Below are positions 19,313 to 21,907 of a stretch of DNA of 39,283 nucleotides, piece after piece. Under the pieces are notes generated by a model, which did not search any database, was not told the DNA's origin, and worked only from the letters and a program-made list of their open reading frames with translations. Source of the stretch: Patescibacteria group bacterium (GTDB taxonomy: Bacteria > Patescibacteriota > Gracilibacteria > UBA1369 > UBA12463); NCBI GenBank assembly GCA_038062935.1, contig JBBTWG010000023.1:1-39283 (forward strand), given 5' to 3'. Numbering within the stretch: the first letter of the stretch is position 1; the number at the start of each line of letters is the position of its first letter. Position numbers and translations under genes: made by a program.

Positions 19313-20310
19313 TCAATTGAGAAACTGATGCTCTAATTCTTCATAAATGAGCCAATGAAAAGCTTTGTGGTTTTTCTTGTTTGAATGCTTCAGCAACATG
19401 CCGCGGTAGCTCGCGATGTTGGTAGGACTGAGTCTTTTTTTGATGCGTGCCTGATTTCTTTTGTTTAATTTCCTACCTGATGGCCAGAGTATGACACCCA
19501 GAAATCTGAGGCCGTGTTTTGCTTTGGGTATTTTGTCGCTCTTTGGATTTATGTTGAGCTTGAGCTGTTCTTGTAAGAAAGCGGCGGCTTGGGTGCGAAA
19601 GGATTTCAACTTTCCTCCATCTGTTTCGATGAGAATAAAATCATCGCCGTATCGAAGATAAGCTTTTGGTTTGAGGATATGCTTCACGAAACGATCGAAT
19701 TCGTTGAGATAGATGTTTGCGAAGATTTGGCTCGTGAGATTTCCGATTGGCATTCCACGCACGCCGCTACTCTCTCTCTCTCTCTCTCTCTCTCTCTCTC
19801 AAAACTGAAAACGATTTTTTTGAGCAGATTCATGGTTTTTTCGTCTTTGATTTTTCGTGCAAGAATCTGAAGCAGGACGTTTTGATTCACGCTGTCGAAA
19901 AATTTTCTCACGTCTCCTTTCCAGATATGGCTCTGCGGATAGGATTTCAGAAATTGCTGTGTTCTTTTGATACAGCCGAGTAAACCTTTTCCGGTGCGAC
20001 ATGACCAGGCATCGTATATAAATGTCTTGTCATAGAGCTTTGTGAGCAAATCATAAATGACGCGATGCACTATGCGATCACGAATATGGGCGACTGAAAC
20101 CTCTCTTTTCTTGTTGTCAGCGACGATGAATTTTTTATAAGATCCATGCTGATATTTCCCTGAATTCAAATCTTCAAAAAGCTCCGCAATATTCTCTTCC
20201 AAATGATATTGAAATTCATGCAATTCTCGGGAATACTTCTTGCCTTTGCGAAAGGCAAACCAGCTTTTCCAGATATTCCCTAAACTCAGATCTATGGATT
20301 CACTTCCCAT
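19313..20310 (-). pseudogene. DGR-type reverse transcriptase, split by a frameshift at a (GA)15 tract (possibly phase-variable rather than dead)
   Basis: N-terminal frame has K.RE..V..IRDRIVH, SCRTGKG and KGDVRKFFDSV; C-terminal frame has GMPIGNLTSQIFAN, RYGDDF and FLG. The frames switch exactly at the repeat; a restored protein would be about 331 aa. Confidence 0.9.
19771..19800. repeat. (TC)15 / (GA)15 dinucleotide microsatellite inside the RT gene
   Basis: 30-nt perfect repeat; encodes ERERERERER in the upstream frame. Confidence 0.98.
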
Positions 20311-20638
20311 TATCAATAAAAGTTATGATGCGTATAAGGCGATTATAGTCATGAATAATGTTTTGGAGAAACGGTGGAGACTTTCTCTCGGCATCAGTCT
20401 CGAAAAATCGATTCTCGATTTTCTGGAATATGCCATTATGGCCAAGAATGCTCCAAAATCATTGAAGGCTTCGTACCTGATTAAAGCCAGCAGTTTGCTC
20501 GAGATTTCGACTTTGAAATTACGCCTTTTCCTGGAACTTCAACTCACGAATGAGACAAAAATCTTCCAGATACAGGGCATGCTCGCCGAGATTGGCAGAA
20601 TGCTTGGCGGATGGCTAAAGGCTTCACAGAGCACATAA
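20294..20638 (+). CDS. avd: DGR accessory variability determinant Avd (four-helix bundle)
   Basis: 114 aa from ATG 20294; LPIINKSYD..KRWRLSLG..LRLFLEL..EIGRMLGGWLK; lies between RT and TR. Confidence 0.88.
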   Translation: MDSLPIINKSYDAYKAIIVMNNVLEKRWRLSLGISLEKSILDFLEYAIMAKNAPKSLKASYLIKASSLLEISTLKLRLFLELQLTNETKIFQIQGMLAEIGRMLGGWLKASQST

Positions 20639-20657
20639 AAAGCACACCTTCTCTCAT

Positions 20658-20756
20658 CCACGGCAGACAGCGCAGGTTGTCGTTCGAATTGTCAGGATTG
20701 TTCCTGTCCAGATTGACGTGGTCGTCGTTCCAATTCGCGTTCGGCAAGTTCTGAGC
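20658..20756 (-). ncRNA. DGR template repeat (TR)
   Basis: 99-bp copy of 21065-21163 with 28 adenines and 10 AAY codons on the minus strand; all 15 mismatches fall on TR adenines. Confidence 0.95.
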
Positions 20757-20941
20757 ATGTGACGAAGTTTCTCTGATGAACATTTGCAGTCGCGACTGCG
20801 ATGTTCGCATTGGTTTGCTTTTTCACCCCCGCTCTACGGGGATAAACTTCGCTCAAACGTGAGGGGAGATGTGCTGATTGTGATCTCAAGACTTCTTTTG
20901 AAATTCAAAGTCTTTTTTATGAGAGACAAAATATGGCAGCC

Positions 20942-20999
20942 TCAACAAAATGTGGAGGTGACTGTTCGCCACGCTCCACATTGAACACTTTATTGTTGA
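20942..20999 (-). other. Stem-loop downstream of VR and upstream of TR
   Basis: TCAACAA..AATGTGGAG-GTGAC-loop-GCCAC-G-CTCCACATT..TTGTTGA; the A/C mismatch on + is a G.U pair on -. Confidence 0.65.
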
Positions 21000-21040
21000 A
21001 AAGATAAAGAGAAGAGAAAAGAAAAGACAAGAATCGAAGA

Positions 21041-21907
21041 CTAAGTTTCCATCTCGCCCTCAACCCACGGCAGACAGCGCAGGCTGCCGTACGAATTGCC
21101 AGGATCGCTCCTGCCCAGAACGACGCGGTCGCCGTCCCAACCCGCGTTCGGCAAGTCCTGAGCGCCAGCAGGTCTTTCAAAGGCATTCCAGGTATTTCGA
21201 TCCAAGACTTCTCCTTCTGCTATCTGGCCGGCCATTGCTGGAACGTAACCATGAGGAGGCATGATGCCAACACCTTTTTCGGCGAAGCGTTTTTTATATT
21301 CTGTGACCATTTGTTCATTGATTCTTCGATTTTCGTTTGTTGGAAAATCTGCATAGAGGATAGATTCATCAAGAGGATTTTCTTTTACTGCCTTTGTAAT
21401 ACCAAATTTCCATTTTTCTGAGCCTACTGTGTCCCAGAATTCTGGCCACCAGTTTTTGCTGTCCGTTTGGTCTGGAATTGTTTTGTTTGCATCGATTGCC
21501 CTCAAAAGGGCTACAGCTTTTTCTGGAGGGACCAGAACGAGTTTTTGAGCGCCAAATTCTCTCAATCCATCCAGCGTTTCGCCTGAAAGGCTTGCGAGCC
21601 AATTGGTGAGACCCTCTACAGTGGGAAGATTTTTCGCGTTGATGAGAAATCTCTCTGTCCATACGGCGAGTTTCGCTGCGAATTGAGATTCGATGGCTGT
21701 TAAAAATTCTGATTGCTCTGGTGTGCGTGTGCCGTCGAGACGGTCGAAAATTCTTGTCATGCCGCGTCTCACTCCTTCGTCTGTTATAAGCGCTAATTCA
21801 GCATCTGCCGGTCTCTCGAAATTAAAACTTTCTGCTGCTAAAAGTGCTTTTTGTTCTGTTGTGAACATGGTCCAGCTGTCTGGAAATTGACCGATTGTAT
21901 TTGTCAT
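21041..21907 (-). CDS. DGR target (variable) protein with a C-terminal VR, presumed C-type-lectin-like fold
   Basis: 288-aa ORF whose C-terminus AQDLPNAGWDGDRVVLGRSDPGNSYGSLRCLPW is the VR. Confidence 0.92.
   Translation of the reverse strand: MTNTIGQFPDSWTMFTTEQKALLAAESFNFERPADAELALITDEGVRRGMTRIFDRLDGTRTPEQSEFLTAIESQFAAKLAVWTERFLINAKNLPTVEGLTNWLASLSGETLDGLREFGAQKLVLVPPEKAVALLRAIDANKTIPDQTDSKNWWPEFWDTVGSEKWKFGITKAVKENPLDESILYADFPTNENRRINEQMVTEYKKRFAEKGVGIMPPHGYVPAMAGQIAEGEVLDRNTWNAFERPAGAQDLPNAGWDGDRVVLGRSDPGNSYGSLRCLPWVEGEMET
21065..21163 (-). repeat. DGR variable repeat (VR)
   Basis: 84/99 identical to TR; 13 A>G and 2 A>T changes. Confidence 0.95.

Follow-up and report, generated by a model that had tools for sequence, protein, structure and literature searches.

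The reverse transcriptase (RT) gene of a chromosomal diversity-generating retroelement (DGR) in a Peregrinibacteria/Peribacteria-like (CPR) groundwater bacterium is broken in frame exactly at a dinucleotide microsatellite, and we propose, with a probability of roughly 65%, that slipped-strand changes in the length of this repeat make the RT phase-variable. The mechanism of DGRs is itself established; the new point is the proposed frame switch borne by a repeat within the RT gene, and it is the microsatellite that gives the locus its main interest. Within the window, by which we mean the whole 39,283-nucleotide stretch of DNA that was analysed, the locus comprises the following features:

19313..19768, minus strand: C-terminal part of the RT, with PIGNLTSQ, YGDD and the thumb, in a different frame from the N-terminal part
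19770..19800, no strand assigned: microsatellite (CT)15C, equal to (GA)15G on the RT sense strand, 31 nt, between RT motifs 3 and 4
19801..20316, minus strand: N-terminal part of the RT, 172 codons to the end of motif 3, whose frame continues to a stop at 19684
20297..20638, plus strand: avd-like accessory gene, opposite in strand to the TR and the RT, from NF033474 and PF22296
20658..20756, minus strand: template repeat (TR), from alignment to the VR, with 28 adenines and 10 Asn codons; same sequence in metagenome run X4
20949..20982, minus strand: strong hairpin with a U-rich tail after it, probably terminating the target gene, from sequence and folding
21031..21066, minus strand: predicted stem-loop adjoining the VR across the stop codon (MFE fold of 20900-21070, z -2.35)
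21041..21907, minus strand: target gene, 288 aa, helical in its N-terminal part and holding the VR in a predicted C-type-lectin-like domain at the C-terminus, from the ORF and a structure model
21065..21083, with its TR copy at 20658-20676, minus strand: A-free 19-nt stretch in an IMH-like position, which suggests its putative role
21065..21163, minus strand: variable repeat (VR), in frame, encoding target residues 249-281
21937..21965, minus strand: promoter-like site TTGACA-17-TAAAAT upstream of the target gene, by consensus match (11/12)

The locus is a DGR with the TR-(avd)-RT layout typical of CPR. On the minus strand, TR 20658-20756 and VR 21065-21163 align without gaps over 99 nt, and all 15 mismatches fall on TR adenines, of which there are 28; the chance of such a placement among 99 positions is about 1.7e-10. 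Thirteen of the substitutions from TR to VR are A>G and two are A>T, together altering 13 residues of the target, and realignment thus returned the repeat pair just as the original prediction had described it. The A-free end that had also been predicted is indeed identical in the two repeats, which diverge beyond it as they do on the other side, but its length is 19 nt and not 18. In the reading frame of the target, every TR adenine (28/28) falls on the first or second base of its codon, and the VR ends 24 nt before the target stop codon, at the 3' end of ORF 21907..21041. A blastn search and an adenine-degenerate pattern search with the TR found no further VR-like copy in the 59-contig genome, so that the suggested hunt for remote targets ended at the known VR. 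When the genome was compared with itself for repeats whose mismatches favour one base, TR/VR likewise emerged as the sole DGR-type pair; another pair (C16:10573-10710 and window positions 18288-18416) was rejected as a DGR, being a conserved element whose central hairpin has been swapped. Between 18150 and 21300 Rfam searches matched no family at E ≤ 1, and over the whole window they yielded only three tRNAs; a promoter scan of the minus strand from 20757 to 20948 found no sigma-70-like site for the TR, a result of little weight for a CPR organism.

The complete DGR that had been proposed from the sequence, with a target ORF carrying a C-terminal VR, an adenine-mismatched TR, an Avd-like gene and an SQ-motif RT, was recovered in all its parts. 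The avd-like gene matches NF033474 (DivGenRetAVD) across profile positions 1-104 of 104 (3.8e-14, 52.9 bits, cut-off 80) and PF22296 (bAvd) at 2.8e-7, both scores being under the curated cut-offs. The RT is spread over two ORFs, 20316..19684 and 19762..19313, the second of which contains PIGNLTSQ, and the two pieces match Pfam RVT_1 at abutting profile positions, 7-115 and 117-205. For both halves the best PDB match is 8ub7_A (E 1.7e-15 and 9.7e-15), placed above group II intron and retron RTs, with residues 23-168 of the N-terminal part aligned to 26-171 of this chain and residues 5-114 of the C-terminal part to 178-285. The PDB search names the chain just 'Reverse transcriptase', and we take it to be the bRT of Bordetella phage BPP-1; it carries IGSLTSQ, an instance of the IGxLTSQ motif common to the window RT. 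The motif (I/V/L)GxxxSQ in RT domain 4 is the signature defining DGR RTs according to the portion of PMC3521204 consulted, and the SQ motif together with the 8ub7_A match bears out the assignment of a DGR-type RT with PIGNLTSQ and YGDD. The element is chromosomal and is flanked by nusA/Fic and a T2SSE ATPase gene.

The target protein has no Pfam or NCBIfam match, and a protein Atlas search with it returned unnamed CPR clusters only. A profile search gathered 95 relatives, and the structure model reached a pLDDT of 91.9 (an earlier model from 8 sequences reached only 52.7 and was left unsearched). In Foldseek no PDB chain matched the model at E ≤ 0.001. VIA-align returned a list made up mostly of FGE-like and CTLD/CLec chains at Z of about 4.4-6, among which stand the DGR variable proteins TvpA (2y3c; Z 5.8, rmsd 3.6, 143 aligned), Mtd (1yu0; Z 5.0) and TaqVP (5vf4; Z 4.4), with every match below Z 8. 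Across 8 homologues the VR columns are hypervariable and the framework residues are conserved.

A comparison of populations supports recent retrohoming into the VR. Run X4, an independent metagenome from another study, carries the same locus with 16 differences from the window in its VR, every one of them at a TR-adenine position (16/16) and 15 of them A>G. The TR and RT are identical in the two populations: 19000-19761 holds one difference and 19809-21083, which includes the TR, holds none. Four runs were compared by means of their Logan contigs, in which minor VR variants and run-length frequencies are invisible, and X1-X3 possibly represent the source sample and would then be non-independent. 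The check proposed earlier, that population variants should be restricted to adenine positions, was answered with contigs instead of reads, and the X4 variant lends support to the accompanying claim that retrohoming had been recent.

The layout corresponds to architecture B3, TR-(avd)-RT, as set out in the portion of Wu et al. 2018 (PMC5758913) consulted. [quoted passage not shown] With the prototype, the DGR of Bordetella phage BPP-1 (mtd, avd, TR, brt), it shares the adenine-specific flow from TR to VR, an Avd, a VR at the C-terminus of a domain that the model suggests to be lectin-fold-like (Mtd 1yu0, Z 5.0), and 8ub7_A (IGSLTSQ) as the closest solved structure for both RT halves. Unlike that prototype, the window element is chromosomal, has avd on the other strand and a microsatellite in its RT, shows substitutions skewed to A>G (13/15 between TR and VR and 15/16 in X4), and has an IMH/IMH* and cruciform that are putative only.

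The original prediction correctly held the RT to be out of frame but overlooked the cause, which lies within the 31-nt dinucleotide microsatellite. The frame shift sits exactly at this run, and both halves are otherwise open and free of further stops or shifts. The break concerns the present state of the element and leaves its assignment to the DGRs untouched. (GA)15G is the sole dinucleotide run of more than 5 units in the 1.02 Mb genome, the next six runs all having 5 units. The 31-nt allele encodes a 210-aa stump that does not contain the catalytic YGDD. When the length was varied in silico, runs of 23, 29 or 35 nt gave a full RT of 331-335 aa and runs of 25, 27, 31, 33 or 37 nt gave a product of 181-212 aa; removal of 2 nt from the run or addition of 4 nt gave an ORF of 333-335 aa with IGNLTSQ and YGDD. 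Because a full RT arises from 23, 29 and 35 nt alone while 31 nt leaves a stump, we propose that the RT phase-varies. The window's 93.6%-complete genome yielded no match to the MutS_V and MutL families, which are present in 11 of 14 control genomes.

Is this repeat peculiar to one gene? Relatives were gathered by RT homology alone, giving 198 loci in 145 clusters and, after merging at 98.5% identity, 156 distinct alleles; 14 matches with 35-39% identity, which belong to a different RT type (C36-like), and 5 short fragments were excluded. The on or off state of each allele was called by our own script from tblastn frames and open frames, and not from curated annotation. Locus counts do not equal independent events, because the loci share ancestry and certain assemblies recur in more than one of the collections. 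A simple repeat of at least 9 nt lies at one of two sites in 88 of the 156 alleles, either after residue about 125-130 or after residue 172, the latter being the window's site, and repeats recur at these same two sites in many genera. Complete alleles with a repeat are out of frame in 51 cases and in frame in 16 (n=67), while those that have no repeat are in frame in 50 cases and broken in 5 (n=55), such that 51 of 122 complete alleles (42%) are split at the repeat. The proportion out of frame (51/67, 76%) is close to the two-thirds of a freely drifting repeat, and for this reason the ratio is not used as evidence of selection. In-frame alleles translate the repeat as (Thr-His)n, (Glu-Arg)n, (Leu-Ser)n or Gly3, and two of them each yield a single full RVT_1 match; homopolymer-type runs (G9, C9, A9G9) occur in some relatives.

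Length polymorphism in the related genes is directly visible. Five pairs of near-identical sequences are separated by 2-6 nt in the repeat and by 0-2 substitutions over 1.4-6.5 kb, and in one comparison a 27-nt, in-frame allele (L080) and a 31-nt, out-of-frame allele (L132) have 0 mismatches in 1828 nt. In each of five other genomes tested (5/5), all (AC)8 matches lie in one place, which is the RT repeat. For the window's own RT the metagenome scan found no close relative (best 67% identity) that would allow such a comparison of repeat alleles; the same-genus genome G001 has only the other RT type.

These counts bear on the possibility that the real run is in frame and that 31 nt is a mis-assembled length. 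The Logan contigs of all four runs terminate within the run, carrying 23-28 nt, and none bridges it, from which it follows that the run length is hard to assemble; such ends could equally be explained by PCR or sequencing stutter. Among these contigs, none of which spans the run, the window's population showed no in-frame allele. However, 51 alleles from many independent assemblies show the same pattern, including the easily assembled short G9 runs, and random length errors would leave the intactness of repeat-free alleles (50/55) unexplained. An assembly artefact is therefore improbable in our estimation.

Another hypothesis is that chance slippage in an incidental repeat recently killed the RT, so that the DGR would be a decaying relic with its VR frozen permanently. 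The assembled RT is out of frame, as this would require, and further damage in 10 of the 51 out-of-frame alleles indicates that some copies are decaying; inactivated DGR RTs alongside intact TR/VR are moreover on record in the portion of PMC3521204 consulted. Nevertheless, neither half of the window RT has another stop or shift, there are zero non-adenine mismatches between TR and VR, and two populations with identical RT and TR differ in the VR at adenine positions only. An incidental repeat also fits poorly with a run that is the genome's only long repeat and with recurrence at two sites over many genera, in-frame alleles included. Both halves are open and full length in 41 of the 51 out-of-frame alleles, and the window is a 42nd, flagged by the script solely for its terminal stop. 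In the out-of-frame alleles dN/dS 3' of the repeat has a median of 0.13 (range 0.07-0.28, 20 pairs), which indicates that the part of the RT downstream of the repeat is probably under purifying selection and argues against a dead element. We accordingly consider a relic unlikely, though a shade less so than a misassembly.

The alternative to which we give most weight, while still thinking it doubtful, is recoding at the level of expression, in which transcriptional slippage or ribosomal frameshifting at the repeat would supply a steady trace of full-length RT and the repeat would be an attenuator and not a heritable switch. It would account for the majority of alleles being out of frame while their downstream halves appear to be under purifying selection, and the homopolymer runs of some relatives (G9, C9, A9G9) are favourable to it, RNA polymerase slippage being known on homopolymer tracts. 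To our knowledge, however, dinucleotide tracts are not among the classic sites at which RNA polymerase or ribosomes slip, and recoding does not predict what is seen in the DNA, namely length variation between near-identical sequences, with an in-frame and out-of-frame pair among them, and in-frame alleles in 16 of the 67 complete repeat-bearing alleles. Among known systems, the IS1/IS3-type transposases are regulated by programmed frameshifting that is ribosomal, uses short heptamers and leaves the DNA fixed. They are likewise mobile-element-type enzymes whose output is held down by a change of frame on a slippery sequence, but in the pairs of window relatives the DNA tract itself is variable in length.

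Finally, the local RT might be dispensable if an intact second DGR RT served the window TR in trans. The genome does encode one (C36:313-1416), an intact RT of 367 aa with its own divergent avd, whose TR/VR are lost beyond the contig end. This RT is just 38% identical to that of the window, however, and DGR RTs are generally considered to act only on the TR RNA of their own element. The apparent purifying selection on out-of-frame halves in the RT clade argues for use of the local RT, and complementation in trans is in our view very improbable, the least credible of these alternatives.

For these reasons we favour a phase-variable RT. By the established DGR mechanism, the RT together with Avd would copy the TR RNA into cDNA randomised at template adenines, and the mutagenised cDNA would replace the VR, thereby diversifying residues 249-281 of the 288-aa lectin-like-domain protein. 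The (GA)n microsatellite would lie in a putative, length-tolerant loop between RT motifs 3 and 4, where slipped-strand mispairing would alter the number of units. In the majority of cells the engine would be off and the VR kept, whereas rare cells that lose or gain units would turn the RT on and diversify the VR, and could later turn it off again. For the window's population we infer that such switching takes place, can be reversed and governs retrohoming.

Contingency loci of Neisseria, Haemophilus and Helicobacter, among them phase-variable CT-repeat outer-membrane genes and the mod 'phasevarions', provide the closest parallel to a phase-variable RT. In both, an intragenic repeat sets the frame through its unit number, here as the only long repeat of a small genome, and length alleles occur in near-identical genomes with on and off states coexisting, here in the window's relatives. 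In the known loci the genes that are switched encode surface antigens or methyltransferases of host-associated pathogens, whereas the gene that would be switched here encodes the polymerase of targeted hypermutation in a free-living or episymbiotic groundwater CPR bacterium. Simple-sequence-repeat contingency loci are also treated in the portion of the review PMC11868660 consulted. With somewhat less assurance than for the window itself, we think it probable that in Peregrinibacteria/Peribacteria and some other CPR the DGR RTs are built as contingency genes, in which a loop-site microsatellite would gate hypermutation stochastically, a two-tier evolvability device that would be kept by selection where mismatch repair is lacking.

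Paul et al. 2017 is reportedly the key survey of CPR DGRs. The literature covered here excludes that survey and all supplements, so an earlier mention is possible; within it, nothing was found that links DGRs with simple repeats, microsatellites, RT-gene slippage or phase-variable RTs. The regulation of DGRs in nature is an open question, called 'an exciting frontier' in the discussion of PMC12875486, the portion consulted. Pipelines that require an intact RT ORF miss or misclassify such elements, given that 42% of the complete alleles here are split. If the model is correct, it would explain the frequent splitting of CPR DGR RTs in assemblies, as well as many DGRs that look inactive and have freshly diversified VRs. 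A heritable, stochastic gate on the RT would further explain how a cell spares a good variant from further mutation, and would be a natural answer to the problem of limiting DGR activity and locking in successful variants.

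With a complete TR/VR pair, an RT carrying the SQ motif, an Avd match over the full-length profile and an in-frame VR all found, the complete element of the original prediction is borne out, and we regard it as a genuine DGR with near certainty. Its parts and immediate neighbour are arranged as follows.

Features of the DGR locus
21907..21041, minus strand: target ORF (288 aa), ending with the in-frame VR
21065-21163, minus strand: VR
20658-20756, minus strand: TR
20297-20638, plus strand: avd-like ORF (whole NF033474 profile, 3.8e-14, below the cut-off; also PF22296)
20316..19684, minus strand: RT N part (RVT_1 profile 7-115)
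19762..19313, minus strand: RT C part (RVT_1 profile 117-205), in a separate frame
18469-19281, minus strand: Fic-domain ORF (PF02661, 9.5e-14; weak 'mobile mystery protein B' match) and a 56-aa ORF, adjoining the RT

TR and VR align over 99 nt without gaps, and recomputation returned the same 15 mismatches as before, 13 being A>G and 2 A>T. All 15 hit one of the 28 adenines of TR, an outcome with a chance probability of ~1.7e-10 among 99 positions. These mismatches alter 13 residues, the two peptides matching those already predicted, and all 28 TR adenines lie at codon position 1 or 2. Both repeats end in an identical A-free stretch, as had been described, the length of the stretch being 19 nt and not 18; outside the repeats the sequences diverge on either side. 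A search of the 59-contig, 1.02 Mb genome for remote targets yielded no copy of TR, exact or adenine-degenerate, beyond the known VR.

The locus is held by four public sequencing runs, of which three (X1-X3) are possibly the source sample and the fourth (X4) is a drinking-water metagenome from a different study. The X4 contig spanning 21055-22131 carries 16 differences from the window within VR, each of them at a TR-adenine position; compared with TR itself, the X4 VR departs at 16 adenines only. Outside VR, X4 and the window show 1 difference in 19000-19761 and 0 in 19809-21083, TR included. These are thus two populations with identical TR/avd/RT flanks and distinct adenine-only VR haplotypes, which is independent proof of DGR activity and the pattern that the proposed check called for, obtained from contigs and not from reads. 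The VR spectrum is skewed relative to TR, with A>G accounting for 13/15 changes in the window and 15/16 in X4, the remainder being A>T with no A>C. A separate cluster of differences at 22084-22164, covering the region upstream of the target gene and the beginning of the gene for T2SSE, is present in a minor X1 contig and in X4 and thus represents strain variation beyond the DGR.

The best PDB match for both RT halves is 8ub7_A (residues 23-168 of the N half to chain 26-171; residues 5-114 of the C half to chain 178-285), labelled only 'Reverse transcriptase' in the match and which we take to be the Bordetella phage RT. It outranks group II intron and retron RTs for both halves and has IGSLTSQ in the alignment. 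The predicted DGR-type GxPIGNLTSQ and YGDD motifs are both present, (I/V/L)GxxxSQ being described as the hallmark of DGR RTs in the relevant section of PMC3521204. The locus is chromosomal, with NusA upstream and a T2SSE/PilB-type ATPase downstream; a 56-aa ORF and the Fic-domain ORF follow immediately downstream of the RT and share its strand. The order target-TR-(avd)-RT corresponds to architecture B3, to which 90% of the CPR set belongs in Wu et al. 2018 (PMC5758913), where both DGRs in CPR bacteria and this layout are already recorded.

The target matches no Pfam or NCBIfam family and has only 8 close homologues among 5.8 billion proteins, in which the VR columns are variable and the framework LP.A.W...V.L...P..S...LRC.PWVEGEM is conserved. 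A profile search recovered 95 relatives, and a structure model built with the sequences of 43 relatives reached pLDDT 91.9 and pTM 0.83. Foldseek gave no match to this model at E<=0.001. In VIA-align (48,161 chains), FGE-like and C-type-lectin-like domains dominate the matches over residues about 100-285, and the DGR variable proteins TvpA (2y3c, Z 5.8), Mtd (1yu0, Z 5.0) and TaqVP (5vf4, Z 4.4) are among them. Because every Z is <8, these matches are a consistent hint, short of proof, that this region may adopt such a fold.

How is the broken RT to be explained? The predicted loss of frame is placed exactly within (CT)15C at 19770-19800, a 31-nt dinucleotide run that is (GA)15G on the sense strand and is translated as Glu-Arg repeats in the N-part frame. 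In silico, run lengths of 23, 29 or 35 nt give an ORF of 331-335 aa that includes both IGNLTSQ and YGDD, and lengths of 25, 27, 31, 33 or 37 nt give 181-212 aa, such that loss of one GA unit would restore the enzyme. The run is the sole dinucleotide run of more than 5 units in the genome, the other 6 having 5 units. MutS_V and MutL families, present in 11/14 control genomes, were not found in this genome (93.6% complete), and slippage products would therefore stay unrepaired. Logan contigs from all four runs terminate within (GA)15G and none spans it, with 27/26, 27/28, 27/26 and 23/23 nt of the run at the contig ends. If Logan uses a word length of 31, a lone clean 31-nt run should not break its graph, so these ends weakly hint at run-length heterogeneity, biological or stutter; they are no evidence of an in-frame RT allele, and none was seen in the window's population. 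A mis-assembled run length is quite improbable as the source of the break. A second intact RT serving this TR/VR is very improbable; contig C36 of the same genome holds a second DGR core (29-1416), consisting of an intact SQ-motif RT (367 aa, 38% identity to the RT of the window, no repeat) and a divergent avd, with TR/VR lost at the contig end.

Other repeats occur in the window. A ~130-nt conserved element at 18288-18416, without an Rfam family, recurs on contig C16 (10573-10710) with near-identical flanks and the central hairpin swapped for a different one, which suggests a structured RNA or terminator module. A 42-nt tandem repeat (24120-24263, 3.4 copies, 97% identical) encodes a repeated heptad-like peptide within ORF 23802-24353 (minus strand, 183 aa, no Pfam match). 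Further arrays lie at 650-724, 10854-10882, 12562-12628, 14528-14554, 16869-16899, 26474-26525 and 32986-33019; the window's arrays include a CCTGTT hexamer array of 12.5 copies, and TAGGATT-like and TGTGACA-like heptamer arrays recur here and on further contigs.

The RT's N-terminal 172 residues matched 26/61 related genomes and 66/205 genomes of the order. Every match with 40% identity or more was taken, omitting 14 rows of 35-39% type and 5 fragments, and 79 metagenome and 46 genome loci were added, for a total of 198 loci in 145 clusters (98.5% identity) with 156 distinct alleles. Simple repeats of at least 9 nt inside the RT ORF were scored, frame calls coming from our own script. Two sites recur.

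Site A: residues about 125-130, before motif 3
Site B (occupied in the window): between motif 3 and GxPIGNLTSQ

Frame state of RT alleles (out of frame or broken; in frame; partial)
With repeat: 51; 16; 21
With repeat of 15 nt or more: 35; 11; 14
Without repeat: 5; 50; 13

The out-of-frame share of 76% is close to the random 67%; the loci are kin, and their counts are not independent. On the sense strand the repeats take the form of (AC)n, (AG)n/(GA)n, (CT)n/(TC)n or homopolymeric G or C, and in-frame alleles translate them as THTH.., ERER.., LSLS.. or GGG; alleles with G9 are out of frame, those with G11 in frame. By leaf order in a tree of the region upstream of site A, site-A carriers cluster together, the window clusters with site-B (AC)n carriers, and (AG)n and G-run carriers fall in other groups. 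RT relatives occur in MAGs labelled Candidatus Peregrinibacteria, Peribacteria or Gracilibacteria, and repeat carriers also in those labelled Berkelbacteria, Parcubacteria and Magasanikbacteria. In 5/5 other genomes tested, (AC)8 matched a single place, the RT repeat. A third site near the RT C-terminal end has G11 (L046:1185-1195) and G9 (L047:1192-1200), the RT match in these two loci breaking off at C-part residue 124. In two related genomes the RT is divided between two contigs exactly at site A (L055/L071 in G117; L019/L072 in G043), so the repeat breaks assembly, and such breaks will conceal these RTs from annotation.

Five near-identical locus pairs differ almost only in repeat length.

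Locus pairs (repeat difference; mismatches)
L080 (27 nt, in frame) vs L132 (31 nt, out of frame); 0/1828 nt
L089 vs L091; 4 nt; 0/6542 nt
L059 vs L118; 6 nt; 2/2151 nt
L129 vs L130; 2 nt; 1/1381 nt
L098 vs L164; 6 nt; 1/3759 nt, VRs also differing

Two RT copies ~5 kb apart on one 6.4-kb metagenome contig (L099, L100) are identical apart from (AG) runs of 21 vs 27 nt. They represent a tandem duplication or else two length alleles assembled into one circular or concatenated contig.

Both halves are open and full length in 41/51 out-of-frame alleles; the window is a 42nd, flagged by the script solely for its terminal stop, and the remaining 9/51 have further damage. Downstream of the repeat, out-of-frame alleles show a median dN/dS of 0.13 (range 0.07-0.28; 20 pairs, dS 0.05-1.5), and this part has thus been translated on an evolutionary timescale. 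Two in-frame alleles each give a single full RVT_1 match (66.5 and 65.8 bits). Recoding, whether of the RNA or on the ribosome, is unlikely. Recent death of the element is distinctly unlikely; PMC3521204 records inactivated RTs with intact TR/VR as sporadic mutations.

In the literature searched, which did not cover Paul et al. 2017 or any supplements, no link of DGRs to simple repeats, microsatellites, RT-gene slippage or phase-variable RTs was found, the matches being general reviews or RT slippage on TR. Slipped-strand phase variation is the reading that best accounts for the broken RT, and we assign it a probability of roughly 65%: the RT would be off in most of the population, with VR stable, rare cells with an in-frame run would diversify VR, and the switch could then revert to off.
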